NCBI GenBank assembly: GCA_008632985.1
Contig: QPGO01000135.1
Span: 62,001-126,000, forward strand
Reading direction: 5' to 3'
Source: Psammoneis japonica
Lineage: Eukaryota
Length of the DNA: 64,000 nt
The translations under genes were made by a program, and so were the position numbers. Under the pieces are notes generated by a model, which searched no databases, was not told the origin of the DNA, and was given only the letters and a program-made list of their open reading frames with translations. Positions 1-64,000 of this stretch are shown piece after piece. How positions within the stretch are numbered: position 1 is the first letter of the stretch; the number at the start of each line of letters is the position of its first letter.

Positions 1-49
1 AAAGGGTCATTTTTTCGCACGTGAGCGCACCTGAGTCTGGAACAAGTCC

Positions 50-1504
50 CACATTGCAGAAGATCCGGCGCCGATGGTTTGGTTCCTGAACAGAGCGGCA
101 CATCCACATGACTTTCTTGAATTGGCAAAAACATGTCGGTCCTCAAGCCCTCCGTGGCAGTGCGATCCGTCGCCACTGAGCACAAGTTCTCTGCTCAAGC
201 GAGCCAGCTCATCAAGTCTCGTTCGGCGATCAAACCACTTGATGGGCACCCGCACTTCCCCTCTGCATTCCTGGCCCCAAGCGTCATGCATCCATGAAAG
301 GAGCAACCTTTTTGTCAGGTGCCGTTTGCAGTGTGGGATGGGCAAGAGGTTGTGTGCCATCCGATCCAGATGCGCGAGCTTCTGTGGCTGCCGGGCTTCT
401 TGGAGCTGTCCATCGGCCGACTGGGTGTGCCAACAGAGCTGATTCTCATGCAAGGACTCCAACAAACACAGGAAATTGCAGCAGCCACCCATGTGACCAC
501 TGTTTTGTTTCATGCCAAGGCGCCATTGCACCACACTGTCCCAGTTGACCCAGGACAACAGAGCATCAACGCCGCCATTCCCGCCCCGGCTGCACTCACG
601 TTGGCGGCCACACCACTTGACACAGCAACAATTTTGTTTCTTCCATCAGATTGTGTGCTTGCCAGCTGCACCTTGTACAAAGCACATGCGCAACTTCGCT
701 TGCTGCCGTGCAATGAACCATGGTCAGCGGTCTTTTGGATCTTTGGTCTCCTGGCAGAGTGCCATCAATGGCAGGGGACATCAAAATCCTTGCATGTCTG
801 GATGGCATGACAAGTGTTGCCCTCGTGGGCTGCTTCTAAAAAATTGTTTTTGTGGAAGAGGCAGCACGTGTGGTGATGGCAAAGTTCTCTGTGGCAGTGG
901 GGTTGCCCCCGTTGATTGTGGTGGATGTGGGCTCACTCTTCACGGGCATCTTCATCCAGCTGTTCAAAATCATCCAAGTTCCAGTGTTGCCGGTGCTGCA
1001 AGAAAATCATTGGGTGGCACGCAATGAGCAGCTCCACTGACATTTAAACAAGGTGGTGTGCATCAATGTGGCCAACACATCGTCAATGGCATTGTGGAAG
1101 CAAGCAGCGCATTTCACCTTGTGCGCCTGGGGTGCATCGCCAACCAACATGATGGGTCTGCCCGGGTCAAATTGCGAGTGAGTTGAGGCTCAATTGTTGG
1201 TGCTGAAAGATTGAGTCTTCTTGTGCTGTGCTGCAGCCTCCATCAAGCATCTTCATTGTTGCAGCAGATGCCGCAGACTGCCGCCCTCATCACTCTTCAA
1301 AGCTCGCTTTGTGCTTGAGCTGAGTTCTGCACTTTGCCTGTTTTCCATTTCCTTTTCCCTTCTCAGCTTTGCTTTCCCTTCAGCCTCACCTTTTGGCCTT
1401 TGCCCACTGTCCACTGCCCAAACCCTGTCAAATTGACACACAATTTTTTGTTTGGCGGTGTCATTTTTTTGTCAGTTTGTCTGTGGGTGTTTCATTTCCA
1501 TGCT
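50..1504. repeat. Unclassified dispersed repeat (family A), background host for many insertions
   Basis: Near-identical modules recur at about 8727-10170, 21100-24449, 29729-30215, 31100-32220, 40150-40718 and 54600-55560; no domain recognised. Confidence 0.8.
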
Positions 1505-1509
1505 TGCCT

Positions 1510-1703
1510 TGACAGAATGCCGAAGGTCGACAGTGATGGAGGCATGAAAGACTCCCTAAAGTGCCAGGACTGTGACAACACGAGCACTGGCAGATGAGAA
1601 AGTGAGAAGCAGATCTCAGAGAGATCTGCTCGTCTATCCACATGGTCCAGCCATCATCCGCATCCAGTCTGTCCATCATGCGATGGGCACAGATGGGCTG
1701 ACA
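1510..1703 (-). repeat. 3' LTR of copia A
   Basis: Direct repeat of 8528-8721 (tgacagaatgccgaagg...gggctgaca), next to the PPT. Confidence 0.95.
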
Positions 1704-1880
1704 CCCTCCCCTGATCTGTGACATCTCAACACAGAGAACAGTGCAGATCAAACCAAAGAATGGGGATGATGTGAGGAAAAAATAGAGAGACTAGACACAG
1801 GACACGAGAAGTGTCCATGCCCAATGCGCCATCAAACAAGAGGGCAATGCGCAGCAGGGAGGCCACCGCAGAAAAAAATG

Positions 1881-2459
1881 TCAACAGCAGTGTCCCATCA
1901 TGCGTCGAGCGTGGCGAGCGTGTGGCACCCAGCCAAGGGCCTTGGTGAGGTCATCGCTGGGGTTGACAATGCCAGGAACATGTCTCGTGACAATCTTGCC
2001 CGCTTCCTTCCATTCTTGGATCGCAAAAAACTGAATCTCAATGTGACGGGATCGCTCAGTCGGGATCGAGTGATTGACAATCTTGATCGCCGATTCATTG
2101 TCAATGTACAACGGGGTTGGCTCTGTCTGAGGGAAGCCTGGGTCCTGTAGAACGTGACGAAGGCACAGGACATGCTTGGCAGCAGTGCCAGCAGCATGAA
2201 ATTCAGCTTCCGTAGAGCTCGCAGCGGCCACCGATTGGGTCTTGCACCGAAAAGACACAGCAGCACCAGCTAACATGCAAGCACAGCCAGTCGTAGAACG
2301 ATGGTTACGGAGGTCATTGCCACAAGCAGCATCCAAGAAAGCAATGAGTTGATGATCACACGCAGGACAAGGGAACGATGGTGAGGTCGGGTCCGGAGTG
2401 AGACGTTCGAAGGGGTGGGCGGGCAGTGTGGAGTCTCGGGTGGGCTTCCTGCAGTTCAA
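1881..2459 (-). pseudogene. pol: copia RNase H
   Basis: AFLDAA, RSTTG, SSTEAEF, IDNESAI, RHIEIQF, NPSDDLTKAL motifs. Confidence 0.92.
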
Positions 2460-2477
2460 TTCCCAATGTTTGGTGCG

Positions 2478-3326
2478 TCAAAGGCACTTGCATGTTCCTT
2501 TGAGCGCGTCACAGTGAACCACAGCAGGACAGGTCGAGAACTTGGATAGAGCAGTGATGGCACACCCAATGTCCAGTCGACAGACAACATGCGCATGCAA
2601 CAATTCGCCAAGAAGAGTTCGGCAGCCGAAACCAGCAGCTTGTTGTAGTTCCGCGTGCTCCGGGGTTCCTTCAGCTGGGCCAATGGTGTTGTGCAGTTCG
2701 CGAACAGAGTCAACAGGCAGTGGGGTGGCCTTGCAGTCGTCGTCAAGTTCCTCCTCCGTCGGTGTCGACCAACCATGCGAGGCACAAACCCGATCTACAC
2801 AGCTGTGAACAGCAGTGCCAATGGAGTCATTGCATTGATGAACATCCACACCATTGAATTCGTCAATCATGCCAAGACACTTGAACGGCGGAGAGGTTTC
2901 CGATTCCAATTGGAGAGCTTTGCCAATCTTGTCATAGATCTTGATCGCAATGGACTCTTCAGGACAAGCGAGAGAGAAATCATCAACCTGACGGAGGAGC
3001 AAGATCTTGTGTCCTTCAAAAGCAGCAGAGTAGATGCATTTGTCATGAGCAGTGTTGCGAAAAAGCAGGTTCACATCAGACAAAATACCGTTGATGTGCG
3101 TCTCCCAGAGCACGCCGGCTTCTGGGTGTCCTTGAAGTGCATGTTGCATCGGGAGCACCATGCTCCCATCCAAGTCAATGCCAAACCGAGCCTTGCACCA
3201 GGTTGCGCATGCCTCGTCCATGGCAACATGTGCGGGGTGTGACGGTCGTGGAGAGTGTGCACAGGCATCACGAGCATCCCCACCAAAGACAGGATGGCTC
3301 ATGGTCGCAGCAAGGGCAAAAAACAT
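2478..3326 (-). pseudogene. pol: copia reverse transcriptase (frameshifted)
   Basis: DARDACAH, ALQGHPEAG, DKCIY, LRQVDDF, LGELLH, RLDIG motifs of RVT_2. Confidence 0.9.
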
Positions 3327-3416
3327 GCGTTGGACAGGCTGCTCAACACAGGACGAGTGCGTCGAGTAGAGTCGATGTAGTGTCGACGCAGCACGGGGAG
3401 ATCCATCACAGCACTG

Positions 3417-6239
3417 TCAAGAGCGCCGTGTGCCATCATGCTTGAGGTCATGTTGCCAATGTGGACGAAGTGCGACAGCATCCTTGGGTCGTTTAATTGG
3501 TGCACCAAACATCCCCAACTCATGGAACTGGTCAAGTTGTTTGAATTCACCTGCATGCCATTCAGGCCACGTGTCCAACTTCTTGAGGCGATGGCGGGTG
3601 AAAGCACCCAAGGCTTGTTCCTCTGGAGTAACAGCGTGAGATGAGATGGCACAGATGTTGACCACACCATTGTCACAATCAACAAAGAACGGCGGAGGGA
3701 CATCGTCATCGTCCGTTTCGGAGAAATCAATGTCGGGGTGGCGGATGGCAGCAACAGCACGTGTGTCGGCGTTGGTGATTTCCGGAACATGCTCATCATC
3801 AGGATCAGGACTCGGTGCACACATGTTGTGTTCCATCAGCGCACGTTGTAGGGCTTGAGAGTCCAGGCGACGTTCCGGCGCGAATTCAATTTCAAAATGA
3901 GTCTTGCCAGAATCACAGACTTGCTGAAAACGTTTGACAGCCTCCTCTGCCGTGAATGTGGGATGATCATCGATCGATGCGATGCACGCACCCTTGACCT
4001 TGTTGCGGGTGGCCTTCAAAGAAGAGAAAAGACGTGCAGCAGGAGAACCACGCTTGATGTCAGAGACAAATGCTCGCCGATGGAGATCGTCCGTAGCCAA
4101 AGAAAGTCCAAATGTGGGATCAGTGAATGGTCCCTTCATCGTACGCTCAATGGTCTTGGCAAAAGGATTCCCATGAAAGTGGAATTCATCCATCATGGTT
4201 TCTTCAGTCTCGGCAGGTAAAGCCTTGCCATCTTGAGTGCGTTCCAAGTGAACCACATTTGGCGGAAGAGAGTCGTGGGGAAGATCATTCATGCCCTCAT
4301 CGTAGCGAATGTGCTTGGCAAGCTTGACACGCGATGTCTCAGCATCACACCAAAGAATGTTCTTGGCAGTGTCCGGAAGACAGCCTAAGAACATTCCCTT
4401 GCGAGAGACAGACCAAAATTTTGCTGGGCGGTGATTCGACGCACGCACCCACACTCGACAACCAAATGTACGAAAGTTCTTGAAATCATCCTTCCGACCA
4501 GTGGCGAGAGTGATCAGAGCAGCAGGTTGTCCACGGGATGGTGTGGTGTTGTTGATTCGAGTGAAATGATGAAAAGCATGGGGCCAGAATTTGATGGGCA
4601 AATCGGCACCGATTGGCATCGCCCGGATGGCATTGGCAACAGACAAATGACTGCGTTCCACTGGGCCACTCTGATTTGAAGCATCTTTTCCCGTGGGACG
4701 AATTGCACAATGAAAGTCATCCTCGAAGAGTCGCCAAACTTCTGGGTTCTGATGCAATTCACCTCCTTGATCCATGAATGCACATTCATCTGGACATTTT
4801 GGCGAGTGCTCTTCCAGAAAGTGGCGAATCCAATTCAAAGGGGTTGCCTTGGAGACACGAGTTGCACCATGGAGACGCTTCGTTTTATGATCATAAACGG
4901 CAATCCAACAAGTCTCGCCATTCAATCCAACACAGTCCTTGGTGCGCTCCGAGTTCTTGGAGCGTAGGCCAGAGAAGGAAAAATCAATTGTAAGGCCTTG
5001 GCATGGTTGGGTGGCAGTAAGAGCAGTGTTCGGACCGGCAGGTTCCTTCGTCTGCTTGGCTCGTTTGCATGTGGGACAAGTGTCGAGAGGAGAAGTTCCG
5101 TGGGCAAACTTGGGGACGCCATCAACATGTTCATGGGCATGACAAAGGTGGTGATCACTCGGATGACCAAGTCGCTGATGCCACAAAAGACGTTCCGTGT
5201 CAGCCTTGAGAGACTGGACAGGAATGTTCTTCTCAGCACACTTCTCGAAAGGAATGTCTTGATGGACACGGGGGATCAACTTGCGTTCAGCACGAAGAGC
5301 TTCATGTTGGTGGGTGCGACAAGTCTCAATCACACACGCAGAGACCGCTTCACACTCATCGGCAAAAGAAGGATCAGCAGTCTTGAGGCGCTCGACAGAT
5401 GCATCCAGTTCGTCGTTAGATTCCGGGAGAATGAGAGGGTGAGCAAAACATTTTCCATTGATCAATTTTCCATGAATGACAATGTCCTGACTCTTGCGCA
5501 ATCGGTGTCGTGCAACAAACTTGCAGGTGCCGAGATCATGGAACTTGAGAATGCAATCGACATTGCAATCTGCGCGACGAGAACCATTTTGACGAAGGAG
5601 GAGTCGCTCATTGACCAACGTAGATTGGATCTGTGGGTGGCAGTGTGCATGGACCTCAACACAGCCATCAGAGTTCTCTGCACGGATGCGAAGATGGCCG
5701 AATCCAACTGGGACAGCTTGGTGGCCAAGGGCCGGGTTGACGGCAAGGGGACAGGGATGGGACGGAGTGAAGTCTTGGCAGCGATGGAGGAGGTCACGGT
5801 CGCCTGCACACGCAATGTCGGCACCTGCACCCAACTGAGCACAACGTTCATTCAGAGCAAAGTTTGCCCCATTGACAGAACAAGTGGATTGCAGTGGTTC
5901 CGGCTCAGGTGAGTGATTCGCCTGGTGTGGATCGATCGGAGTAACACGAACAGAATTGACAGCAGCAAAACCGTCTTCAACAGCAATGTCATCACATGTG
6001 AGATCAATGTGTTCCTCAAAAACCGGTGTTTCTGGGTCTTCCCTCCCCTGTTCCAAAGGATCCAGAACATGAGCAGCATCAACGGAGGCTTCTTGAGGAG
6101 CAGGGTCATCATCGGGTAACGTGCTGGCATCAAATGACATCTTCGTGGAGGTGGAAGGGGTGGCATCCACATCAATCTGTGAGGAAAGAGGTGTTGCAGC
6201 GGTGGATGACGAGACGGTTAGTCCCTCTTTCAAGGTCAT
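3417..6239 (-). pseudogene. pol: copia pol: pre-integrase and integrase region
   Basis: LWHQRLGHP...CPTC HHCC region; IDFS, MDQGGE, VERSH DDE core; FRTFGCRVWV and KGMFLGC (Y>C) C-terminal motifs. Confidence 0.9.
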
Positions 6240-6483
6240 CCCGCTGACATTGGTCTTGTCTCGGTGAGGAGATAACGGGCAGCGTCGGAGATCCGAAACT
6301 AGCTGCGATGGCCCGATTGAAAATCCGAGGGCTGAGCACTAGACGGAGGCAGATTTTCAGGATTGTCATGATGAGGTGGGAGCAAACCTTGGGGTCCTTG
6401 GAACTCAGAAGCACGCACAGCTGCTTCCCATTTTAAAAATTGACAAAAATGGATGTGGAATCCCTTGATGTACGGGTCATTCT

Positions 6484-8349
6484 TCAGGACTGGACAGTCA
6501 TCAAATGATGCTCTCCAGAGCAGACAAGACATGGTTTCTTGGAGGCTTCATGCGGAGCAACTTTCAGTTTATAGACTGAAGCCGAGTGTGCATGGTGAAG
6601 GATTCGATCTTCGTCCATAGATGGGATCTCGAGTTCGTGTAATTCGTCGCAAAGAGCATCAAAGGTGTCCGGAGGTGGAGATTCTGCACCAGGATCTTCA
6701 GTGGTAGAGTCATCAACTGGTTCATGGAGGGGCATCTCAGGGATCTGGAGAGAGTTGACATTGGCAGGTGTGCGTCGCGTAGAAGCATCTGCTCGATTCC
6801 ATGTACGGCATGGGTTGGATTGCGTCGTACGAGTGGGAAGGGATGGGCCACCCGGTTGGCAGAGGAAATCAGAGAGAGTCTCGACAATCTGTGCATCCGT
6901 GTGCTTCTTCTGCACAGCTGGAGACTTCCGTTCATCTCTGGCAGCACGTGATAAGAACTTGGAGTACTTGGTGTTCTTGACAAAGACAGTCATCTCCCGT
7001 GGATCGTTCAACGTAGAGTCCGTGTCAAAAATGTAGGCATGTAGCTGCAGGAAATCATTGAAGATCATGTGGCAGTCCGTTGATGATCGATTGCCTTGGA
7101 TGGGGTGGGAATCAACAAGTCCAGCAGCATCATGATCAAAGGCAGGGTGATTCTCGTAGATGATCTGCTTTAGAGCCTTGCATCCGTTGCCGCAGCACGA
7201 TGCAACAATCCGATGACACTTGCTGTTCTTGGGGAACATGTCCGACTTGGAGAGGATTTTGTGGAGAGAACTCTGAGCTTCCTTGCAGTGGACGTACATG
7301 CGTTGAGGCAAGTCATCATCCTTGCCGTTGCCGATCTCAAAACCCTTCTCACCACCGTGATCCTCAGTGAAACACCACAGGGGATGCATGCAGTAACCTG
7401 AATCAAAGGCATGACGTTGGAGATTTTGGTGCCATGCTCGCATCCCAGGGGGAGAGTCGTCATGACATACAGGAGGTTCTCTGAACAGCATTTTCTGATC
7501 AGGAGTCGAGCTCATGATGAAAAGGGTGCCATCGTTAAGGATGACACGATCGGATGCATCAACACAGTGACGGAATCCATGGTCGCAAGGGACAAGAAAG
7601 CTCTGAAGAGTGACTTTTCCGTCTTCTTTGCGGTCGTAGCGTGCACGAACGTCTGCAGGAAGTGTGTTCGGATTGAAGAGGCATTTCGATGTTGCGGAAG
7701 ATGTGGCACTTCCAGATGTCTTAGCAGAAGCTGTAGAAGGCGGAGCATGGCTCGACGTGCATGCATTGAGTGCGGTTGCCAAGTCAGTCACAGTCAATGT
7801 AGCAGGTCCTGCAGGTTTCTGAGAAGAAGACGGAGGCTGCTGTTTCTTCTGGCAGGGCGTAAGAGAGAACTCGTTCCAATTGCGATAGTTCCACATCATG
7901 TCCGGATCAACATGCATGTGTTGGGTAGATGTGACAATGAACAGAGATTGTTCACCGTTCTGAAGATTCGTCTTGATCATCTTTGATAAGATCGGAGTCG
8001 TCAGGCAGACTGGACGAGGCCTTTGAGGGTCAAGAAGTCTGAACGGGGCTTGATCCACAATCGTCTTGATTGATTCTATATCCGTGGGATCAGCTGTGCA
8101 AGGTGGAAATGCTTCATGGATGAAACAATCGCGAAGCATGTCCGCAAAATCGTTCTTGGGTTGCGCATGCTCTGGATCGTCAAAAAATCGATCGAGATCA
8201 GTTGTGGAGTCTGCATGAACCGCACTCAGGCACTGATGTAGATGTGGTGTCGTTGCATGTGCCTCAAATTCGCAGCAGATCTCTGCAATTGACGCAGGAG
8301 CGGCTTTTGCAAGGTCGGGAGACGCCATGGTTTTAGTGGGTGGAGCCAT
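6484..8349 (-). pseudogene. gag: gag-like ORF of copia A
   Basis: 621-aa ORF just inside the 5' LTR ending in a degenerate Zn knuckle (CLVCSGEHH, continuing as FDDC in another frame). Confidence 0.7.
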
Positions 8350-8513
8350 TTTTGGTCATGCACGCGTGGAAATCTGGTGTGTTTCTACGGTCGTGAAAAA
8401 TGCCGGGAAAGCGAGACAAAAAGTTGTCAGATCAGACGATGAGGCTCGCTTGATCGGCTCACAAAACAAATGAATCGAGATGGAAAGCTTGGCACAGAGG
8501 TCTGTGGCACAGC

Positions 8514-8527
8514 GCACGGCCATGACC
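8514..8527 (-). promoter_or_regulatory. Putative primer-binding site, half-tRNA(iMet) type
   Basis: Minus strand GGTCATGGCC directly inside the 5' LTR; resembles the GGTTATG... internal-tRNA PBS of copia-type elements with TA>CA. Confidence 0.5.
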
Positions 8528-8721
8528 TGACAGAATGCCGAAGGTCGACAGTGACAGAGGCATGAAAGACTCCCTGAAGTGCCAGGACTGTGACAACACG
8601 AGTGCTGGTAGATGAGAAAGTGAGAAGCAGATCTCAGAGAGATCTGCTCGTCTGTCTGTGTGGTCTGGCCATCATCCGCATCCAGTCTGTCCATCATACG
8701 ACAGGTGCAGATGGGCTGACA
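8528..8721 (-). repeat. 5' LTR of copia A
   Basis: Direct repeat of 1510-1703, followed on + by TSD TGCCT. Confidence 0.95.
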
Positions 8722-11700
8722 TGCCTGACACTGATGCTTGGTGGTGTCACATTGTCCGTGCTCCCCTTTCCCATTTCCTTTTCCCTGCTCCCATTTGTCA
8801 TGTGAGGGAAGGCTTGATCAGCTGGGCTGCTTGTTTCAGCACTCAAATGCCAAGCATGGCGGCGGCCATCGAGGCTGGCCACATGATGGCGGTCATTGCA
8901 GCCTCTGCTGTGATCAAGCAGCTGCATCCCGGCAACACTGCAAAAGATCTGGCACCGATGGTTTGGTTCCTGGACAGAGCGGCCCACCCACATGACTTTC
9001 TTGAATTGGCAAAAACAAGTCGGTCCTCAAGCCCTCCACCGCAGCGCAATCTGTCGCCATGGAACACGAGCTCTCTGCCCAAGCGGGCCAACTCATCAAG
9101 TCTCGCTCGACGATCAGACCACTCGATCGGCACCCACACTTTTCCCCCACATTCCCAGCCCAAGTTTCATGCACCCATGAAAGGAGCAACCTTTTTGTCA
9201 GGTGCCGTTGGCAACGTGGGATGAGCAAGAGGCGGTGTGCCATCCGACCCAGATGCGCGAGCTTCTGTGGCTGCCAAGCTTCTTGGAAAATTGCAGTGCA
9301 AAACATGATGTGCTGTTCGGCCGGTGTGCTCTTGGTGGAGGTGGCTTTTGTTCTTTGGATGTGGAGCAGGGCACATCTCAATGCACACAGTTTCTCCGAC
9401 ACCGGCGCAGCTGTGGTCAGCTTCATGTTCTGCCATGCATTGCAGTGGCGTGGGTGCAGCTTCATCTGGGCACAGGCACCACTGCCTCACTCCGAATCCA
9501 AATGGCCCATGTCTTTGCAATCATTTTTGGCTTGAATCATTCCTGAGCCACCCAGTCAAGAGTGCCACGAAGCTCTGGTTTTCTGTCGTCAAGCCCAGGA
9601 AATGTTTGGTGATGCCAACAAACAGCAGCTCAACAACGCCGCCCTTGAAGCCAACAACGACTCTTCTGTTGTTTCAGACCAGTCAGCTCCTCTCTGAAGT
9701 TTCTTCCTTGCTTTGCTGCATTCTCCATCTGCGTCTTTCAAAGTGCACCTCATTTCTGCATTTTGTTTCTCTCTTTCAGTTTTGCAAACATCCACCAAAG
9801 TTTGTTTTGCACTTGAGCTGAGTTCTGTGCTTCACCCATTTCCCATTTCCCATTTTCCCTTCAGCCTCACCTTTTGGCCTTTGCCCGCTGTCCGCTGCCC
9901 AAACCCAGTCAAATTGACGCACAATTTTTTGTTTGGTGGTGTCATTTTTTTGTCAGTTTGTCTGTGGGTGTGTCATTTCCATGCTGACCTGACATTGATT
10001 TTTGTGCTTGGCAGTGTCATGTTGTCCGTGCTCCCCTTTCCCATTTCCTTTTCCCCGCTCCCATTTGTCATGTGAGGGGAGGCTTGATGAGCTGGGCTGC
10101 CCGGTTGTTTCAGCATTCAAGTGCCAAGCATGGCGATGGCCATCAAGTGAGGCCACATGATGGTCGTCATTGCTGACAGGATTTGAGCAAGATTTCAGTT
10201 TGTCGCGCACAATCATGTGTGCTCTCAGCTCCGGGCACACCACACGATGCAAATTGCTTTCAAGCCACATGGCTCGCAAGAACAACAACAGTGGCGCCGA
10301 CATCACGACACCAGTCTTTCGGCTCCTGCAACAGTCTCCACACGGAGACTCACCTGCCACTCAGACAGCAGCGAGGAGTCACTGTTTTCTTCCACCCAGT
10401 CATCTTCAACTTCTGTCAGATCAACAGTCTTGCTCATTCTTGCCCACTGAGCATTCATCATTGTCATCGAGAAATTTTTTGATCACGTGCACAGCTGGCG
10501 GTGGAAGTGCACATCTGCCTTCTTCGCTGCTGGATGCTGGATTAAATCCACACATTTGGTTTTGTCCAACACCTCCCATCATTGCATGTGTTTGTTCAAC
10601 GGACATTTGTTTGGTCAGGAATTCCCAAATTCTCAGAAATCTGAGATTCCAGATTCCCCGCAGCAGATTCTGCCCTGGTCAGCAGACAGACCAATCCATC
10701 TGTTCGCGCTCATGTGCGCACGACATGAGCCCTTGACTCTGGCCCTGCTTCGCACATGCCAAGTCCACCGCCTTGCATCTGCACCGGATTGCTGGTCTTC
10801 TGCAGTCCTGCAAGGTCCACGAAGACAACTGCAAGAGGAAGCAATTCGTGATTGCAGCCTGCGTTGGGGCGAGGGTGCAGTTCCCACGTTTGTTCGTCCC
10901 TCCACAGTGCCAAATTTGGCTGGCCTGATCGGGTCATCCAACCGACACAAAATGAGAACGGTTCGGAGGTCTTGTCCACCTCCAGCTGGCTTGTCAGCAG
11001 GGGTTTTTAACCCATTGCTCCACTCTCAAGCAACCCAAATTGTCACCAGCTGCGGGTTCGGATGTGCCGGCACAACTCTGCAGGCAAACGGGATGTCATG
11101 GCCCGGTGGCTTCTGACTTGCAAGATGGCTCAAGACTTCAAGTCAAGACTCAAGCCAAGTTTCAAGTTGTTTCAAGCTCACCTTCTGACTCTGGCCAGTC
11201 CCGACACTCACCCAGTTGCAACATGGTTCTGACCAGACAGCAACAAATCAATCCCATGCGTGACTTGAAACAAGGCATCAAACGCAACCCACTCACCTTC
11301 GCGCTTCTCAAGTCTGACAAACAGTGGCACATGTGGCACACCTCCATCATTGCACAGGCCCACTCCCATGAAGTTGACCGCGTTCTTGACATGAAGAACA
11401 AGCCCTCTGCAGCTGAGGACAAGGCCCTGTTTGATGAACAACAGAAGCACATGTTCATTGTGTTCGAATGCATCTTGCAGAGCGACAAAGGCAAGGCACT
11501 CTTTTGTGAACATGTTGGCTCCTCTGATGCTCAAGCGGTGTGTCGTGACCTGTCCAAGTGTGCCCTTGCTTCCACTCGCGCATCCCTGGAGTCCTCAACC
11601 CTTCTTGTGCACCTCACCACTGCTCATCTCGGTGATGGCACCTGGAAAGGATCCACTCGTGCCTTCACACTTCGCTGGCATGACCAGCTTTGCAAGCACA

Positions 11701-12562: not shown

Positions 12563-12760
12563 GGGCCGCTCCAAAAAACACAAACCCATAAATGCACAAA
12601 TCTGTGTCTTTTTGACATAGATTTTTTTAGCTGTCCACCAGGCCGCCAATCTCGACATTTGTCAGAGCTCGAACCGTCGGAGGGAATCTTTCTTTTCACT
12701 CCGACAGAAATTTGAAAAAATGACTCGCACGGCTCTCTGCTCTAGCACCATTGTTGTCAT

Positions 12761-13989
12761 TTGTTTTTGTCGGTAGGAACGATGCTTGTCCCGCAAATCG
12801 CACTTCATTTTCTCATCACAGAGGAGTGCACAAGAAACCAGGATGAAGGCGTTTCATTCAGGAACATGTTGTCCATGGAAGGTCGGCACAGGCGTGACAA
12901 GCGTGTCCCACGTCCAAGTCTTCAGGACCCGAGTTCGTCCGCCTTTCGGCACATGCATGAATCTAACAACGACCAAGCTCTCATTTCCGTGGCGGGTTGC
13001 GATCATGATTCCTTTGAGGTTCTGTTGAAGATGTTTCAGCCATTTACGACAGACACACACCATACACCACCACTGGATTTATCGAGCAACTGCCCGAAAG
13101 GCCTGCAAGGCGTGGACGGCCACGTTCCCTGGACGCCATTGGATGCCTCGGGTTGGTGCTAACTTGGCATCGGACAAAAGGGGCTGTTTCTCGGTCTCTT
13201 TGCATGACATTTGGCCTTGTGAACACAGTCATGTCTGACTTTTTACAGTTTGGACGACGGGTGCTGCTTTTTGCTTTGCAAGATCATCCAGATGTGAAGA
13301 TAGAGATTCCATCAGCCGCAAGGACATTGGAATGTATCGCTGCAATAGAAGCAAAGCACCCTCATGCTGAAGGTGTTTGGGCTGCACTTGATGGACTGAA
13401 GTCACCCATGGAAGCCTCAGAGGATGACAGAACTCAGAACATGTTTTACAACGGATGGACGCATGGTCATCATTTGAATGGCACATTTCTTTTCAACGCG
13501 GAAGGGAAGATTCCCATTTGCAGCATCAATTCTCCTGGAGCATGGCACGACTCAATGCAAGCTGACCACGGCCTTGTCTGCCACAAGTGTGAGCAAGTGC
13601 ACAGGGAAACTGGAGCCAAGGCAGTGGTGGACTCTGCCTTTAATTTAGGTGACAAAGAGTGCTTCATCAAGTCATCTCAACAAGACGCCATGAATGCAGA
13701 AGACCTTCTTGTGGGCCGAGATGCCACGTCTGTTCGGCAGCTTTCTGAATGGGGAATGCGAGCCATTCAGGGAAGCAATCCGCGACTCACGGAAAAGATC
13801 ATGCATGAAGAACAGGGGGAGCGCAGGATCATAATTCATCTTGTGGTTCTGCTGCACAACTTTCGTGCTGCTCAAGTTGGCATGAATCAAATTACCAACG
13901 TGCACATGCCACAAATGTCGGTTGATGCTAATTGCATCTTAGATCAGTTTCGCCACGATAATGAAGAAGACCAAACCAACAAAAACTGA
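12761..13989 (+). pseudogene. Harbinger DDE transposase (DDE_Tnp_4-like), frameshifted near 13050
   Basis: WAALDGLK, FYNGWTHGH, PGAWHDS, VVDSAF, RQLSEWGMR, LLHNFR motifs. Confidence 0.88.
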
Positions 13990-14033
13990 GCTACAACAAT
14001 TAAATCCCAATCCTAATGACACACACTTGGTTT

Positions 14034-15085
14034 CTACTCGTCGTCGTCAGAGTTGTGGGAGGAGCGCATGTACGCCGTGATGGCACCAGCAATCACTCCC
14101 GTCAACATGTTGGTCATCTGACCACGCTGCTCATGCTCCTCCTGGCGACGCAAACGTTCTTCCTCCATGTGCATCTGATGCTGCATGATGGACATCTGAA
14201 AAAGTTCAGACATCTCACTGCTGGCGGGAGTTACAGTGCGCCTGCGATTGCCGGATGACACAAGAGGACGTGGGGTGCGGGTGCGCAAGCTGAAGGAATC
14301 GGCATCATGTCCTGCTGGTCCCCCACCACGAGGGATGCTGCATCCAGAACCGCCGACACCGCGTCCAGAACCGCCGACACCACGTGTAGAACCGCCGAAA
14401 CCGCGTGTAGAACCGCCGACACCGCGTCCACGCTCTTGTACACCGGCACCACGCTCTTGTACGCCACCACCATGATCCTCGTCCACGTTGGCACGTTGAG
14501 CCATGTTGGCGAGATTCGCCAGTTGCTCCAGAGGTGCACGGTTTTTTGACGGCGTGGCACAGCAGCTTGAGCACCCATGACATGCTCAAGGTCCTCATTG
14601 GGAAGGGGTGGCCTTTCAAACTCAGCCGCATCTTCCTCATCATCAGGCACATCAGGCGGAGGAAAATCATCTTCTTCAACTGGAGGAGCTGGCGGATCCT
14701 CAACTGGAGGAGCTGGCGGATCATCGTCGAGCACGCGGTCGACGTCAGTCAATTGACTGAATTCACCTGCATGAAGGTCAAACCTTTCCGTGCCATCACT
14801 GATGTCTGCCCTTTGGCTGATGGCATGCTTGACCCGTTTCGCAAGCTTGACATCAACTGGGCAGTTGGGATCACCTGTCTTGACTTTCTTGCGATGGAGC
14901 TGAGAAAACTTGCATCGGATCGATTCGACAGTGTGAACGTTGTCGCCATCATAATTGGTGTTGTGCTCATCGGCGACCTCATCCCACTCGTCCCCACCAA
15001 TGGGCAACCTGCGCATCATGATGTTGAGGAAGTGAATGTTCTCATCCCTCGAGCAGTTGGATGAGCGGCTCCGAGCTTGAGACAT
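14034..15085 (-). pseudogene. Harbinger accessory Myb/SANT-like (DUF6818-like) protein, frameshifted near 14530
   Basis: SNCSRDE...LPIGGDEWDEVADEH...ESIRCKFSQLH...TGDPNCP N-terminus, acidic Pro-rich linker, C-terminal coiled coil; lies inside the TIRs. Confidence 0.75.
14346..14471. repeat. 21-bp coding tandem repeat (six units, two types)
   Basis: agaaccgccgacaccgcgtcc-type x4 then acgctcttgtacaccggcacc-type x2; encodes GGSTRGV-like heptads on -. Confidence 0.9.
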
Positions 15086-15160
15086 GATGAAGATGATTGA
15101 GCTGCTGGCAGCACACGTCAGAAAAATATGGGAAAATCGAAACTTCAGAATGGACCTTAC

Positions 15161-15223
15161 AAAAATCCTGGCGCGGCCATCAGAAATCCTGGCGCGGCTC
15201 CCCAAAATTCTGGCGCGACTGGC
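15161..15223. repeat. Three 21-bp subterminal repeats upstream of the Harbinger accessory gene
   Basis: aaat(c/t)ctggcgcg core at 21-bp period. Confidence 0.75.
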
Positions 15224-20998: not shown

Positions 20999-21002
20999 TC
21001 CC

Positions 21003-24880: not shown

Positions 24881-24919
24881 CACTCCCCCATGATCAGGGC
24901 CGTTAAGTGACAGGATGTC

Positions 24920-28139: not shown

Positions 28140-28175
28140 TGTGTTAAAACCACCTGCATCATGTCGGCCCCCTTC

Positions 28176-29255: not shown

Positions 29256-29314
29256 CGTAGTTTCGTTTCTGTAGATTTCGTTGCCTCGCACAACATGCGG
29301 GAGCAATGTCACTG

Positions 29315-47296: not shown

Positions 47297-48231
47297 GATT
47301 GACAGTCTTGCTCATTGTCAACCCATTGAGCAACCGCCATCGTCGTGTTGATTTTCCGATGACACCATTTCAATTCTGCGTGGACCTCCGCACATGTTCT
47401 ACATGCGTTGGCAAGTCCCGTGGCATTCAATGCCAGGCATCGGCAGGAATTTAACGCAACCGTCCAGTCTCCTTGCTGCTGGATGTCTGGATTGATTGTG
47501 CTGCCTTTTTCGCTGAAGACATGCATTCAACGGTTGCATCCAAGTCCACCCTTGATCCTCATCCCTTGACACACCCATTCAACGGTTAACGGTCAAGAAC
47601 CCTGCACATTCAAGGATCTTTGTGGCTGAAGACATGTGCATGTGCACATCTTCACGGCCAAGGACTTGAACCCACTCTTTGGACTGCGGCTTTGCCACCA
47701 CTCTACAAGCACGCTGAGTCTGTTGTGCCTGATCTACCCCGGACTGCTGGTGCTCCACAGTTCTGCCAGGTCCACAAGGATGACTGTGAGAGCAAGCAGC
47801 CGTGATTACAGCCTGCTTTGGGGCGAGGGTGTTTTCCCGCGTTTGTTCGTTCGTCCACAGCGCCTGATGCCTGCATCAACTGGCCAGCCTGATCGGGAAA
47901 TCCAACCGACACAAAACAAGAACGGTTCGGGGGTCTTGTCCACCTCTAGTCAGCTCACCTGCAGGGGTTTACAACCCGCTGCTCTGCTCGCAAGCAACCC
48001 AAAGCGCCACCAGCTGCGGGTTCGGACGTGCCGGCACAACTCTGCGGACCGGATGGGAAGTTTAGCACTTGACAACGAACGGGATGCCACAGCCTGGCGA
48101 CTTCTGATTTTAAGATAGTTCAAGACCTCAAGTCAAGTCTGTTTCAAGTCAAGTCCATTTTCACTCAAGTTTCAAGTCTGCCTCCACATCCCAACAAGAA
48201 TCGCTTGCCCTGACACCGTCATTTGTCTACC

Positions 48232-51200: not shown

Positions 51201-53496
51201 CATGCAGCATCCCCACATCTCCACTGGCGCATGCCCCTCGAGACTCTCACTGGCTCCACCCCAGACATCAGCCCATTGCTTCACTTTCACTGGTGGGAAC
51301 CCGTGTGCTTCCACCTCGATGACTCCGATTGGCCGTCCGAATCCCGTGAGTTGCGTGGACACTTTGTTGGGATTGCTGAGCAAGTCGGCCACCAGATGAC
51401 CTTTAAGATTCTTTCTGACGACACTCAGAAGATCCTCTGCCGGTCCAATGTACGTTCCGCTGCTGCCGATCCTTCCGTTCGCAACCTGCATCTTGATCCT
51501 CCTGATGGGGAGCCACCTGAACCCATCATCAAATCTCGCCATGACGACAACCCCGTCGATTCACCTGATGGGGAGATCAGGACACCCAAGATGCCAGTTT
51601 TTGATCCGCAAGACATCATCGGACGCACCTTCCTCATGCAGCCACAAGAGGACGGACAACGCCACAGAGCTCGCATCGTCAAGGCAATCGAAGATCACGA
51701 CTGGAAAGTGAATGGCAACCCCAAGCTCACTAAGTTCATCTGCTCTGTCAACAATGACGAATGCGAGGAAGTCCTTGCCTGCACCTCGCTGCAAGTGTGG
51801 ATGCGAAGTTCCCCGGAACTACAAACACGCCATGTCACCAGACAAATGCAACGGCAACCGCAAATGGGGAGATGCAACTAATCTCGAGATGGACCAACTC
51901 GATGAATGCGAAGTCTTTCATGACTGCGGGCCCTCTGAGTCTTCCACTCCTCCTGCGGGACACAAGAAGATCCGAGTGCACCTGGTGTGCGACGTGAAAC
52001 ACGACGGCCGCCACAAGGCACGACTTGTAGCCGATGGACACCTCACAGACGCACCTGTTGACAGTGTCCACTCCGGAGCAGTCTCCCTTTGTGGCCTTCG
52101 GCTGATGATTTTCCTGGCCAAACTCAATGAGTTGGAGACATGGGCCACCGACATTGGCAATGCCCACCTTGAAGCCACCACCAAGGAGAAGCTGTACATT
52201 GCAGCTGGACCCGAATTTGGCAAACTCGAAGGCCACATTCTTGTCATCCACAAGGCCCTGTGTGGACTGCGCAGCTCCGGCCTCCACTGGCATGAGCGCT
52301 TCGCCAACTGCCTGCGAGCTGAAGGTTTCTTCCCCTGCCGTGCCAAACCCGACATTTGGATGTGCAGGAACGGCGACCACTGCGAATGTGTTGCCGTTTG
52401 TGTGGATGACCTCGCCATTGCCATGAAGGACCCTCAATCTTTCGTCGATGCTCTCACGGAAAAGTGCAAGTTTAAGCTCAAGGGTGCGGGACCGATTGAG
52501 TTCCATCTAGGCTGCGACTTTTCCCGGGATCCTGACAGCACCTTGTGCCTGTCTCCGCGCAAGTGCATCGAACGCATGGTTGACAGCTGCACACGACTGT
52601 TTGGAGAGAAACCTGCCACCAACGCCCTGTCCCCTCTGGAGAAGGGTGACCACCCCGAACTGGACACTTCCGAACTGCTGGGGCCCGATGGCATTCAACA
52701 GTTCCAGTCTCTTGTTGGTTCCCTCCAATGGGCAGTGTCCTTTGGTCAAATTGACGTTGCCACGGCCGTCATGTCACTCTCTAGCTTCCGAGCTGTGCCC
52801 CGTCAAGGCCACTTGGATCATGCCAAATGTGTCTGTGGGCACCTCTCCAAGATGCGACACGGCTCTCTCCGCGTTCGCACGGAAGAACCCAACTGTTTGG
52901 ATCTCCCTGCACCGGCCCATGAATGGATGCATTCCGTGTGCGGCAAAGCAGAGGAGATGATCCCAAAGGACGCTCCACCGCCCCTTGGCAAGTTTGTCAC
53001 TGCCACCCACTACGTCCATGCAAACTTGCATCATTGCATGCTCACCGGACGCTCTGTCATGGGAATGCTCCACTTCCTCAACAAATTCCCGGCTGATTGG
53101 TTCTCTAAGAAGCAAGCCACCGTGGAGACTGCGACCTGCGGGTCTGAATTTGTTGCCGCAAGGACTTGTGTCGAACAGATTGTTGACCTGTGCATCACCC
53201 TGCGCCACCTTGGCGTCCCGATCCGTGACATTGGTTGCATGTTTGGTGACAACAAGTTGGTTGTAGACAGTGCCACCATCCCGCACTCCAAGTTACACAA
53301 GCGACACACCGCACTGTCGTTCCACCGTGTGTGTGAGGCAATTGCCTCTGGTTGCCTTGAGCTCCACTTCATCGAAGGCTCCCGCAACCCTGCTGACATT
53401 CTCAGCAACATTGGGGTCACTCCCAAGTGTGGGACCTTCTCCGCCCCCTCATGTTCTGGAACTTCATTCCATCCAAAGTCGAATCTGTTTCTGTGA
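48232..53496 (+). pseudogene. pol: gag-pol of copia C (multiple stops and frameshifts)
   Basis: LVDRGANGG protease; VATDT, SEPHQQHQNFAERRC integrase; HKARLVADG, DIGNAHL, VAVCVDDL RT; TCGSEF, GDNK, NPADILS RNase H. Confidence 0.93.
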
Positions 53497-53517
53497 CTCC
53501 TCAAGCAAACTGGGGAG

Positions 53518-53795
53518 TGACAGGATTTGAGCAGGATTTAGGTGCGCACGACACGTCGCGCGCTGTTTAGTTTGCCGCGCACAGTTTTGTGTGCTCTTTA
53601 GTTCCGCGCGTGCATGCGCGATGTAGTTTGCTTTCAAGCCACATGGCTCACAAGAATGACAACAGTGGCCCCATTGTGCCAACTTGCACGTCTTTTGGCT
53701 CCTGCAACGGTCTCTGAGCGGAGACTCATCTGCTGTTTAGACAGCAGCAAGGAGTTGTTGTTTGAATTCTTGCCATTTGCCTTCAATTTCTGTCA
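53518..53795 (+). repeat. 3' LTR of copia C
   Basis: Direct repeat of 47019-47296, preceded by the PPT. Confidence 0.95.
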
Positions 53796-55912
53796 AGCTG
53801 CAATGTCATGCTTGAACAGGAGATTGGGGAGATCACATCCAAACCCCTTGCCGTCATCACCAAGGACAATCCCGTCACATGTGCCATCTGCCCACATTGG
53901 CATGGCCTCCTTGAAACCGAAGGATGGAGGCATTTTTGCAAGATGGCCCCATGTCAGAAGAAGATGTTCCGCATGGCCAACCAAGCCAAGTTGCGCTCCT
54001 TTCGCACTGCGCCACGATGCAAGTGCAGGTGTGAAGTGCCACGGGACTGGAAGCATGCCTTGGCCCTCGATGAGCGCAACGGCAGCTGCAATTGGGGAGA
54101 TGCAACGGACCTCAAGATGACTCAGCTTGATGAGCACGAGGTCTTCCACGACTGCGGACATTGCAAAGACTCCAGTTCCCCACTGCGACACAAGAAGATC
54201 TGGGTGCATCTTGTCTGTGACGTCAAACATGATGGACGGCACAAAGCAAGGCTTGTTGCCGATGGACACCTCACAGACGTGCCCGTCAACAGTGTCTGTT
54301 CCGGAGCAGTGTCTCTTTGCGGCCTGTGAATGATGATCTTCCTGGCTGAACTCAACAAACTGGAGACTTGGGCCACCAACATTGGGAACACCTGTCTTGA
54401 AGCTGCGGCCAAGGAGAAATTGTGCATTGCAGCAGGCCCTGAATCTGGCAAGCTGGAAGGACACATCCTTGTCATCCACAAGGCCTTGTGCAGACTCCAC
54501 AGCTCTGGCCTCAGATGGCATGAACGATTTGCCGATTGCTTGCGTGCTGAAGGCTTCTTCCCATGCAAAGCCAAACCCGACATCTGGCTGTGCAGGAATG
54601 GTCCATTTGCAATGTGGGATGAGCAAGAGGTGGCATGCCATCCAACCCAGATGCACGAGCTTCTGCAGCTGTTGGGCTTCTCAGAATTGTCCGTCAGCCC
54701 GCTGGGTTGGCCACCTCAGCAAATTTTTGTGCAAGGGCTCCAACGAACACTGGCAATTGCAGCAACTGCCCATGTGATCACTGTTTTGTTTCATGCCAAG
54801 GCACCATTGCACCATGCTGTCCCAGTTGACCCAGGACAACAGAGCATCAACGCCGCTGTTCCCACTCCGGCTGCACTCACATTGGTGCCCACACCACTTG
54901 ACTCAGCAACAATGTTGTTTCTTCCATCGGATTGTGTGCTTGCCAGCTGCACCTTGTACAAAGCACATGTGCAACTTTGCTTGCTGCCATGCAATGAACC
55001 ATGGTCAGTGATCTTTTGGATTTTTGGTCTCCTGGCAGCATGCCATCAATGCAGGTGACATCAAAATCCTTGCATGTCTGGATGGCATGACAAGTGTTGC
55101 CCTCATGGGCTGCTTCTAAAAAATTGTTTTTGTGGAAGAGGCAGCACGTGTGGTGACAGCAAAGTTCTCTGTGGCGGTGGGGTTGCCCCGGTTGATTGTG
55201 GCAGATGTGGGCTCACTCTTTGCGGGCATCTTCGCCCAGCTGTTCGAAATCATCCAAGTTCCAGTGTTGCCAGTGCTGCAAGAAAATCATCGGGTGGCAT
55301 GCAATGAGCAGCTCCACTGACATTTAAACAAGGTGGTGTGCGTCAATGTGGCCAACACATCGTCAATGGCATTGTGGAAGCAAGCAGTGCATTTCAACTT
55401 GTGTGCCTGGGGTGCATCACCAACCCACATGACGGATCTGCCAGGATCAAATTGCGAGTGAGTTGAGGCTCAATTGTTGGTGCTGACAGATTGAGTCTTC
55501 TTGTGCCGCACTGCAGCCTCCATCAAGCATCTTCATTGTTTTGGCAGATGCCTCAGTCTGCGTCAAATGCTGCGGTCCTCATCATGACATTTAATTTCCC
55601 GCAAGGTTGAAAAAAGTGGGCCGTCATGGTCGCTGAAAGCCGCGGCCATTTTGGCTGTTTGTTGGTTCACATTTGCTCTGTTTGTTTTGCTCAAAAGCCA
55701 TTGATGTGATCATTTTTTAACAAAATGTCAACAATGTTGAACAAGGCACAAAACACTCATTTTTTGTGAAAAACGGGCATGAGCGTGCCACCCAAAAAGT
55801 CTGGAACAAGTCCGGTGGCATGGACACAAGATTTCTCTGAATGCATTCAGAGCTTGCAGAGGCACCGCTCAAGCGATGGTCAGGGTTCCTCCCCCAAGGC
55901 AGTTGGAAGAAA

Positions 55913-61917: not shown

Positions 61918-62307
61918 GACGTGTTCCAGGTCCAGGTGGGACCTCGCACTGCTGAACTGTGACATCGACAGTTTTTTGAATCACGTCGCATGTTGCGCAC
62001 GCAGATTTCTACGAGATTTTTTTGACATTTTGTGTCATTTTGTGGCACACTCATTGAGCAATCCGTCCAACTGCTTTTGACATTTTTTGTTGCAGCGCGA
62101 TTCTACAATGTCTTAAGAATCATGTGGGGCAGGCACTTTTGCAAAAACATCGAGTGGCAAGAGGCACAATTGTGCCACAAACTTGGCCGTTTGTTTGATG
62201 TTGAAGACAAATGTGTCCACTGATTAAATTCTCGCACTGCGGAGCTCACAAGCAGAATTCCACGGGCCCAATCTCACACGGAGTCCCACCCAGGGCTGGA
62301 AGGTGCC
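61918..62307. mobile_element. MITE
   Basis: TIR family; TSD GGAT/AGAT. Confidence 0.85.
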
Positions 62308-62486
62308 AGATGAGCACTTGGCTGAAGACAGGTTGCAACTTCTTGATTCAGCAGATGAGCATCTCACTCACTCTGCTCATCTGATGCAAAATTGGTTGGC
62401 TGCAGTGAAGCCCATGTTCAAGTCCAGCTTGTGGGAAGCCAAACGGCTGGCCATGAGAAGCACGTGTTCTGTTGCCAGCTGCTTTG

Positions 62487-62836
62487 GTTTGCAGAATTCT
62501 GCGTGCGAGCTCCGCAGCACAAGAGTTTGATTGATGGACACATTTGTCTTCAACATCAAATGAACGGCCAAGTTTGTGGTGCAATTGAACCTCTTGCCAC
62601 TCAACGTTTTTGCAAATGCGCCTGCCCCATGCGATTCTCAAGACATTGTAGAATCGTGCTGCAACAAAAAATGTCAAAAGTTTTTGGACAGATCACTCAA
62701 CAAGTGTGCCGTTAAATGACACAAAATGTCGAAAAAATCACGTGGAAATCTGTGTGCGCGTCATGCGACGTGATTCAAAAAACCGTTGATGTCACAGTTC
62801 AGCAGTGCGAGGTCCCACCCAGACCTGGAACGCATC
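62487..62836. mobile_element. MITE truncated at one end
   Basis: Right TIR ctggaacgcatc followed by AGCA; same junction as 40143. Confidence 0.8.
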
Positions 62837-62876
62837 AGCAGTTCAAAAACACCACCCTTGAAGCCAGCAATGACTC

Positions 62877-63323
62877 TGCAGCATGCATGCAGACAAAAGG
62901 TTATTTTTGTCACGCCCTTTGTGACATTTAAAGGCTGCAACACGTCGCTGTGATGCATTGACTCTCATCAGTGGCTGCATGTTGCACTCCTCCCCATGTG
63001 TCACGCGTCCATGCGGCTCTTTGCCAACGTGTGCTGACACTGCACAGTTTTGGCAGAACAGTGTGGGCACGTGCAAAGGAACACACAGAACTGCACAGAG
63101 TTTCATGCGTTCGACAGTGATCAACGTTGCTGCAGACAACTCCCACTCAGGGTTTCGAACCCCTGGCCTCCTGCCCAATGGTTGCGATGAACCACTCCAC
63201 TGTGAATTCACAATGCAGCATGCATGCAGACAAAAGGTCATTTTTGTCACACCCTTTGTGACATTTAAAGGCTGCAACACTTCGCCGTGATACATTGACT
63301 CTTGTTGGCAGCTGCACTTTGCA
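62877..63323 (-). mobile_element. TRIM with internal tRNA-like sequence (inverted)
   Basis: Reverse complement of 58956-59403; TSD ACTC. Confidence 0.92.
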
Positions 63324-63469
63324 ACTCCTCTGTTGTTTCAGACCTGGCGGCTCCTCTCTGAAGTGTCTTCGTTGCTTTGCTTCACTCTCCATCTGCATCT
63401 TTCACAGTGCACTTCATTTCTGCATTTTGTTTCTCTTTCAGTTTTGCAAACATTCGCCAAAGTTTGCTT

Positions 63470-63859
63470 GACGCGTTCCAGGTCTAGGTGGGACCTCGCA
63501 CTGCTGAACTGTGACATCGACAGTTTTTTGAATCACGTCGCATGTCGCGCATGCAGATTTCTGTGTGATTTTTTCAACATTTTGTGTCATTTTACGGTGC
63601 ACTTGTTGAGCAATCCATCCAAAAACTTTTGACATTTGTTGTCACAGCGCGATTCTACAATGTCTTAAGAATCGCGCAGGGCAGGTGCATTTGCAAAAAC
63701 GTCGAGTGGCAAGAGGCACAATTGCACCACAAACTTGGCCGTTTGTTTGATGTTGAAGACAAATGTGTCCATCAATTAAATTCTCGTGCTACGGAGCTCG
63801 CACGCAGAATTCTGCGGGCCCAATGTCACACGGAGTCCCACCTGGGGCTGGAATGCGTC
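63470..63859. mobile_element. MITE, followed by part of another copy running to the window end
   Basis: gacgcgttccag...ctggaatgcgtc; TSD not clean. Confidence 0.85.
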
Positions 63860-64000
63860 GGTTTTTTGAATCGCGTCGCATGTCGCGCATGTGCATTTCT
63901 ACGTGATTTTGGTGAAATTTTGCATCATTTTATGGTGCAATTATCAGGCGATCCATTCAACAACTTTTAATGGTTTTTTCTTCCACGCCATTCTCGAGTG

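Follow-up and report, generated by a model that had tools for sequence, protein, structure and literature searches.

Loss of TpA across the window

The stretch of Psammoneis japonica DNA analyzed here (assembly GCA_008632985.1, contig QPGO01000135.1, positions 62,001 to 126,000; 64 kb, numbered from its first letter and called the window below) raises the question of what has removed the dinucleotide TpA from it. The window is a nested transposon and repeat region with near-complete loss of TpA and an excess of TpG and CpA, as a sequence-only reading of this DNA had claimed. Across the whole window, the observed/expected ratio (O/E) of TA was 0.13 (490 counted against about 3750 expected), with TG at 1.59, CA at 1.65 and CG at 0.63. 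The dinucleotides other than these four lay between 0.86 and 1.17; AA, TT and AT were at about 1.0–1.17, AA itself at 1.17. TA O/E spanned 0.02 to 0.55 in 2-kb bins and was 0.43 or less in 63 of the 64 1-kb sections. Over the 1-kb sections it fell as TG/CA rose (r = -0.77) and rose together with CG O/E (r = 0.71). The sequence-only reading had taken all repeats to be hypermutated; this held for nearly the whole window, the part that did not stand being about 800 nt within a gypsy element (27200–28000), where TA was normal.

Raw reads were represented by a coded public run, X1, which was searched as unitigs. X1 unitigs at single-copy depth (54–111) reproduced TA-poor stretches of the window; two unitigs, of 488 and 304 nt, had zero mismatches to it, and six such matched segments contained 9 TA against about 119 expected. 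Most differences between the window and other genomic copies in X1 were transitions (349 of the 414 places classed by kind), and in 7 of the 40 differences listed (423 in all) the X1 copy carried TA where the window had TG or CA. Two further runs, X2 and X3, had almost no coverage of the window. X1 possibly comes from the same sample as the assembly, and no platform is recorded for it; its match to the TA-poor sequence is therefore support and not independent proof. This origin leaves some room for an artefact of sequencing, base calling or polishing where a base is modified, as does the unmutated gypsy stretch, which could stem from polishing with reads of other copies. We nevertheless consider an artefact highly improbable: single-copy-depth unitigs reproduced the TA-poor stretches exactly, different copies showed TG and CA at the same site, TA was called normally within 27200–28000, and a metagenome contig from a separate record (L001, described below) shares the bias.

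Tyrosine codons and the direction of change

According to the sequence-only reading, tyrosine (Tyr) codons (TAY) at conserved positions of the transposon proteins had been replaced by the two products of a TpA transition, cysteine (Cys; TGY) and histidine (His; CAY), with destruction of catalytic motifs such as YxDD. The seven peptide motifs quoted in its favor, from copia, gypsy and Harbinger elements and partly from their reverse transcriptases (RTs), were all present where it had placed them:

4380–4400, minus strand: copia motif KGMFLGC
13795–13812, plus strand: Harbinger motif KIMHEE
13849–13866, plus strand: Harbinger motif LLHNFR
26941–26961, minus strand: gypsy RT motif VRTHLDD
27046–27060, minus strand: gypsy RT motif WGKCE
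27100–27120, minus strand: gypsy RT motif GCHHIRL
52378–52410, plus strand: copia RT motif HCECVAVCVDD, in which YxDD reads VCVDD

We aligned public relatives to the window by tblastn, using 120 each for the gypsy and copia polyproteins (50–66% identical) and 150 for the Harbinger transposase. For gypsy and copia, Tyr columns were those with Tyr in at least 70% of at least 20 relatives; for Harbinger, softer columns with Tyr in at least 30% of relatives were used. The 28 conserved Tyr columns of gypsy read Cys at 11, His at 11, Tyr at 4 and other residues at 2. The 65 columns of copia, counted over all window copies, read Cys at 33, His at 8, tryptophan (Trp) at 7, Tyr at 2 and other residues at 15, and the 15 soft columns of Harbinger read His at 8, Cys at 2, Tyr at 3 and phenylalanine at 2, the 3 Tyr standing against 15 expected from the 150 homologs. 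The claimed replacement could thus be put at 22 of 28 columns for gypsy, 41 of 65 for copia and 10 of 15 for Harbinger. The relatives conserve Tyr at these columns rather than natively encoding Cys or His, and the loss of catalytic motifs was borne out by the altered copia YxDD. Control residues (one-letter code) were retained, in gypsy at F 24/27, W 18/19, H 12/12, G 36/36 and R 32/37, and in copia at F 34/43, H 44/51 and P 58/61.

Reverse changes from His, Cys, glutamine or Trp to arginine (Arg) were scarce, with at most one per class in the gypsy and copia columns. Among 21 copia Tyr positions covered by at least two window copies, 8 were mixed TG/CA and 3 were TA/TG. The same Tyr codon is therefore TGY, CAY or TAY in different copies, indicating that the ancestor was TAY and that the copies were converted independently. 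The direction of change is TA to TG or CA.

Timing and rate of the change

The two long terminal repeats (LTRs) of one element are identical at integration. We compared four LTR-type pairs, 1204 aligned nt in all, from the following elements:

1505–8726, minus strand: copia-type LTR retrotransposon with RVT_2, gag_pre-integrs and SH3_retrovirus domains
1510–1703 and 8528–8721, minus strand: its 194-nt LTRs, from LTR alignment
1505–1509 and 8722–8726: its perfect 5-bp target-site duplication, TGCCT
24450–29724, minus strand: gypsy-type LTR retrotransposon with RVT_1, RNase H and integrase domains, inserted within another repeat
about 24450–24880 and 29310–29724, minus strand: LTRs of the gypsy element
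22485–22535 and 770–815: empty-site paralogs of the gypsy insertion
33320–36450, plus strand: short element flanked by a direct-repeat (LTR-like) pair, 33320–33660 and 36023–36450
47014–53800, plus strand: copia-type LTR retrotransposon with an RVT_2 domain
47019–47296 and 53518–53795, plus strand: its LTRs
Target-site duplication of the copia element at 47014–53800: AGCCA on the left, AGCTG on the right

Pooled, the four pairs held 60 events, comprising 39 TA-type, 13 CpG-type and 8 others. The TA-type events were CA/TG in 20 cases, TA/TG in 13 and TA/CA in 6, and the remaining non-CpG events were one other transition, six transversions and one other double change. The states common to both LTRs were 9 TA and 58 CG. 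TpA events in the LTR pairs exceeded transitions outside TpA and CpG by 39 to 1 of 60, an excess in keeping with the claim of TpA-specific change.

In the copia element at 1505–8726, all 11 LTR events were at TpA (CA/TG 7, TA/TG 3, TA/CA 1) and the 6 shared CpG were intact. The gypsy pair, whose insertion is proved by the two empty-site paralogs, had 8 TA-type events, 1 CpG-type event and 1 transversion; the LTR-like pair at 33320–36450 had 15 TA-type events, 4 CpG-type events and 3 transversions; and the copia pair at 47014–53800 had 6 TA-type, 8 CpG-type and 4 other events. The target-site duplication copies of this last element also differ by a CA/TG pair, which places a change in flanking DNA that first existed at integration. 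These changes arose in genomic DNA after insertion.

By arithmetic on the LTR-pair counts that ignores invisible concordant hits, at least 59 of 96 TpA lineages had changed, about 200 times the rate of ordinary sites, compared to 13 of 142 CpG lineages (about 20 times) and about 9 of 1932 other site-lineages (the reference rate of 1). TpA change was thus about 10 times faster than CpG change. Pairwise CA/TG counts among repeats (371 of 698 adjacent double differences) were dropped as proof because a CpG ancestor gives an identical pair, and the protein-polarized and LTR-based counts were used in their place.

RNA A-to-I editing of retroelement transcripts by an ADAR-like enzyme, fixed through reverse transcription and re-insertion, would be a different source of the signal. 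ADARs are, to our knowledge, known only from animals. The editing route gains from the fact that retrotransposons are the majority of the elements here, and from the 5ʹ U preference of ADARs mentioned in the Discussion of a preprint by Mettrop et al., as far as that text is drawn on here (bioRxiv 10.64898/2026.01.13.699255). We hold it to be scarcely credible, since the Harbinger DNA transposon shows the same Tyr loss, the LTRs of single insertions differ nearly only at TpA, the target-site duplication is split CA/TG, and both strands are equal in gypsy (Cys 14, His 14).

Error-prone synthesis of the Pol eta type at WA motifs, one of the candidates of the sequence-only reading, was rejected. 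It would affect AA as well as TA, and AA O/E was 1.17, while transitions outside TpA and CpG amounted to 1 of the 60 LTR-pair events.

CpG decay as a separate process

A second kind of change was evident in the same DNA. Of 92 conserved copia Arg columns, 33 were changed (Cys 13, His 12, glutamine 5, Trp 2, stop 1), and CpG to TpG/CpA decay in the LTR pairs ran at about 20 times the background, accounting for 13 of the 60 events. CpG decay is a separate and slower process acting in the same DNA as the TpA loss, and its presence in repeats implies cytosine methylation. Bigelowiella natans, a species considered below, has CpG methylation. Phytophthora, by comparison, is reported to be without 5-methylcytosine in the part of PMC6211444 drawn on here, and in this it differs from the repeats of the window, which show CpG decay.

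Could CpG methylation decay alone, or GC-biased gene conversion or compositional selection, explain the TG/CA excess? The decay is truly present, as the copia Arg columns and the whole-window CG O/E show, and CG O/E is correlated with TA O/E. However, CpG decay cannot remove TA or make TGY or CAY from TAY, a point on which the sequence-only reading was supported, and in one LTR pair 11 TpA events stand beside no CpG event at all, although 6 CpG are shared. A drive toward GC is opposed by AA, TT and AT, which are without depletion. We regard the probability of these explanations as close to negligible.

Strand, sequence context and age

As claimed by the sequence-only reading, the process acts on both strands: in a softer column set of gypsy, Cys and His were each found 14 times. 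Along the gypsy element the Cys/His outcomes formed 17 runs, against 15 ± 2.6 expected, and strand-coordinated runs, as expected from processive deamination of a single strand, were not found among these outcomes. A run count at the expected level suggests that single sites were hit many times independently, and makes one processive pass over single-stranded DNA less likely. Surviving TAs were scarcest in the contexts ATAT and GTAT/ATAC and most frequent within TTAA; under an adenine reading, this tentatively gives a 3ʹ neighbor order of T > G ≈ C > A.

TA O/E increased with the summed depth of matching X1 unitigs (Spearman +0.68, 30 bins). The abundant gypsy family was least converted and low-copy relics were TA-free; depletion follows age, not copy number. 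Mutated DNA was itself copied onward, and many TG and CA are common to copies. In within-window families of at least three copies, CpG-type variable columns were CA/CG in 77 cases, CG/TG in 71 and CA/CG/TG in 61. TpA-type columns in the same families were TA/TG in 11, CA/TA in 7 and CA/TA/TG in 8, and a further 83 CA/TG columns were ambiguous.

The unmutated stretch within the gypsy element has the following place in the window:

27200–28000, minus strand: unmutated patch inside the gypsy element (protease/N-terminal RT region), delimited by TA O/E and Tyr retention

In this patch TA O/E was 0.81–1.04 and CG O/E 0.77–1.56, with a GC content of 43–50%, and Tyr was kept at 5 of 7 sites, compared to 2 of 34 downstream. 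The patch may have arisen by recombination with an intact copy, by tract-wise action of the mutator or as a polishing artefact. The gypsy element in which it lies has roughly 200 copies.

Comparison with known systems

The sequence-only reading knew of no described system with this signature, which does not hold. A full-text literature search for TpA-type hypermutation returned a single matching work, the preprint by Mettrop et al., which in the parts drawn on here reports TpA to TpG/CpA hypermutation in B. natans (bioRxiv 10.64898/2026.01.13.699255); another paper, PMC2873906, is unrelated. In mutation-accumulation lines of that species, 231 of 302 new mutations fell in one giant-virus and one virophage insertion; 230 of these 231 were A>G or T>C, every one of them within a TpA, and the rate was some 1000 times that of the genome (10.64898/2026.01.13.699255). 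The same text describes 324 predicted genes that are nearly TpA-free and enriched for DDE endonuclease/transposase and reverse transcriptase domains, and its authors propose an ADAT2-like adenine deaminase (10.64898/2026.01.13.699255). The signature has thus been described, and its favored mechanism proposed, since 2026 in a single preprint.

The likeness of the window to B. natans, as portrayed in those parts of the preprint, is close. The dinucleotide and the two products are the same, both strands are affected, the rate is orders of magnitude over background, and domains of DDE transposases and reverse transcriptases occur in the TpA-poor sequences. In the window, too, the changes are mainly A:T to G:C transitions, restricted to TpA and about 200 times faster than ordinary change. 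The two cases differ in that the B. natans record is one of de novo mutations in viral insertions that are partly depleted (Rho_TpA 0.45), whereas the window holds a near-saturated historical record on LTR and DNA transposons, for which LTR pairs and target-site duplications supply the dating, with CpG decay alongside. New in the window are the saturation seen in ordinary transposons, the use of LTRs and target-site duplications for dating, a rate set against that of CpG, the finding that outcomes do not run by strand, and the co-occurrence of CpG decay. The feature is real, strong and rare, and the window is a fuller instance of it, possibly in another lineage.

Repeat-induced point mutation (RIP) of fungi resembles the window in being a dinucleotide-specific transition hypermutation that riddles transposons and wrecks reading frames. 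RIP depends on duplication and acts before meiosis, whereas depletion in the window follows age and an element of roughly 200 copies has an untouched patch. The direction is also opposite, as the sequence-only reading had it: the window destroys TpA and creates CpA and TpG. RIP changes C:G to T:A, mostly CpA to TpA, and so creates TpA, according to the part of PMC2621366 drawn on here.

APOBEC3 and ADAR likewise leave clustered, deaminase-type transitions that disable retroelements, and ADAR shares the 5ʹ-U/T preference. These enzymes, however, work on RNA or on intermediates of reverse transcription and leave their traces on a single strand, whereas in the window a DNA transposon and flanking DNA are affected, on both strands equally and after integration.

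Proposed mechanism and its alternatives

The window repeats carry a TpA-specific transition hypermutation, probably the same phenomenon as in B. natans. TA becomes TG or CA when one of the palindrome's two base pairs goes from A:T to G:C. The process acts on double-stranded genomic DNA after insertion, at single sites and on either strand at random; it has affected LTR retrotransposons, the DNA transposon and unclassified repeats, and has reached at least one of the target-site duplications that flank them. Old low-copy remnants are left essentially free of TA and the young, abundant gypsy family is partly converted. Removal of Tyr codons (YxDD to CxDD) inactivates the elements, and ordinary decay of CpG to TpG/CpA, of the kind expected under cytosine methylation, runs more slowly alongside.

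The process is probably aimed at DNA that is silenced, foreign or repeated rather than at the genome as a whole. The contrary view, an untargeted mutational bias by which all neutral DNA loses TpA and repeats are merely unconstrained, fits the depletion of the whole 64 kb, including unclassified sequence and the target-site duplication. It would leave unexplained the 800-nt patch of normal TA within a depleted element and the TA-bearing copies of the same gypsy in the X1 reads, and a roughly 200-fold rate at every TpA would be a very heavy load on host Tyr, isoleucine, leucine and valine codons. The process is, moreover, local in B. natans in the passages of the preprint used here (10.64898/2026.01.13.699255). 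Taken together, a genome-wide bias seems quite unlikely.

As to the agent, we tentatively put forward a TadA/ADAT2-like enzyme that deaminates DNA adenine to inosine, which is read as G. In the tRNA substrate of TadA/ADAT2, A34 is preceded by an invariant U33, which would explain a strict 5ʹ-T requirement; these enzymes deaminate adenine following U/T (U33–A34), and evolved TadA works on DNA. We know of no natural TadA/ADAT that hypermutates chromosomal repeats.

The sequence-only reading had spoken of A to G at TpA on both strands. Its polarity and its two strands stand, but the change can be described equally well as T to C: TpA is palindromic, T to C on the opposite strand yields identical products, and sequence counts therefore cannot separate A>G from T>C. 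A thymine route, in which the T of TpA is modified (for example, hydroxylated to 5-hydroxymethyluracil (5hmU) by a TET/JBP-type enzyme) or misrepaired and then replaced by C, so that TA turns into CA on one strand and TG on the other, fits every count equally well, and nearest-neighbor effects are symmetric for the two routes and so cannot decide between them. In dinoflagellates 5hmU occurs preferentially at TpA and TpC, and some eukaryotes have TET/JBP genes associated with transposons. On the other hand, we know of no pathway that efficiently converts modified T to C, and the 5ʹ-T requirement is natural for TadA/ADAT-type enzymes. The authors of the B. natans preprint also prefer adenine deamination in the text drawn on here (10.64898/2026.01.13.699255). 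We therefore judge the thymine route unlikely.

Several observations weigh against targeted, TpA-specific hypermutation of genomic DNA by an adenine deaminase. There is no host gene in the window for comparison, so that the targeting of repeats is inferred, and no sequence feature identifies the enzyme or separates adenine from thymine chemistry. Local strand asymmetry exists, Cys to His being 33:8 in copia and His to Cys 8:2 in Harbinger, although the copies are not independent. The unmutated patch, lying in an element of roughly 200 copies, might be a polishing artefact. Present variation within the window families is mainly CpG-type, indicating that much of the TpA loss predates the latest duplications. 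CA/TG pairs can in principle derive from a CpG ancestor; taking the CpG change probability as about 0.09, less than one of the 20 in the LTR pairs is expected to do so. Some of the LTR differences could also stem from intermediates of reverse transcription; the split target-site duplication, which is one site, and the Harbinger element argue against such intermediates as the sole source.

Elements and gene content of the window

The window is a transposon nest with at least two copia elements, one gypsy, one Harbinger-type DNA transposon and many unclassified repeats at 75–94% identity. Besides the LTR-type elements given above, it contains:

12746–15253, strand not assigned: Harbinger/PIF-type DNA transposon remnant, from Pfam domains
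13018–13989, plus strand: its DDE_Tnp_4 transposase open reading frame (ORF), from Pfam
14231–15253, minus strand: its DUF6818 ORF, from Pfam

The Harbinger remnant (13018–15253) has the usual two-gene layout, and the DUF6818 ORF would fit the Myb-like partner protein of Harbinger/PIF elements. DUF6818 clusters in the ESM Atlas are mostly from Oomycota, a weak lead. Protein searches with the gypsy, copia and DUF6818 sequences yielded metagenome proteins.

No host genes were found by a Pfam scan of 223 ORFs of at least 110 aa plus 24 longer ones, which returned transposon domains and DUF6818 only, and scans of the window for Rfam families and tRNAs returned nothing. Long open frames crowd all six frames (223 of at least 110 aa, 30 of at least 250 aa), an excess due to the loss of TAA and TAG. 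For the part of the window at 20001–40000, the summed X1 unitig depth of repeat families was 10,000–54,000, compared to about 60 for unique sequence, and some repeat families therefore have hundreds of copies.

Wider occurrence and significance

A metagenome scan with the window copia protein returned just two short, distant loci. The first, L001 (positions 1–1703 of a metagenome contig; a copia 47% identical), had a TA O/E of 0.20, with TG at 1.49 and CA at 1.35, and at 16 conserved Tyr columns it read Cys 5, His 2, Trp 4 and Tyr 2. The second, L002 (1–1021), was milder, with a TA O/E of 0.54. The same scar may thus be present in other environmental eukaryotes. TGG (Trp) recurred at conserved Tyr columns, 7 times in the window copia copies, 4 times in L001 and twice in L002; it needs either a third-base change following TAY>TGY or a lineage-specific Trp.

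Among the database proteins, three Harbinger relatives (P0276, P0306 and P0346) and one copia relative (P0218) had 0–0.9% Tyr with raised Cys and His; P0276 had no Tyr, 6.2% Cys and 5.0% His. These four proteins were probably translated from similarly hypermutated copies. The Tyr-to-Cys/His scar shared by metagenome contigs and database proteins suggests that the system could be widespread among protists. A bolder proposal is that the window represents a second, independent lineage, not chlorarachniophyte, in which a TpA-specific DNA editor serves as a general RIP-like defence, saturating on every transposon class and working alongside cytosine methylation; this is doubtful, if conceivable.

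The classic examples of hosts that mutate their parasites are RIP in fungi and APOBEC/ADAR editing in animals. An editor that changes A:T to G:C in chromosomal DNA, and does so specifically at TpA, would add a third type, which has so far rested on one preprint, and the window is an independent and far more complete record of it, in which all transposon classes were affected after insertion. Gene callers would over-predict in such regions, where long ORFs are spurious, and the Tyr-free, Cys/His-rich pseudo-proteins derived from them contaminate protein databases. Should the enzyme prove to be a naturally occurring DNA adenine deaminase that obeys a strict 5ʹ-T rule, it would be of interest to base editing, and if the system is widespread, a comparison of genomes that carry the scar with genomes that lack it could reveal the enzyme.

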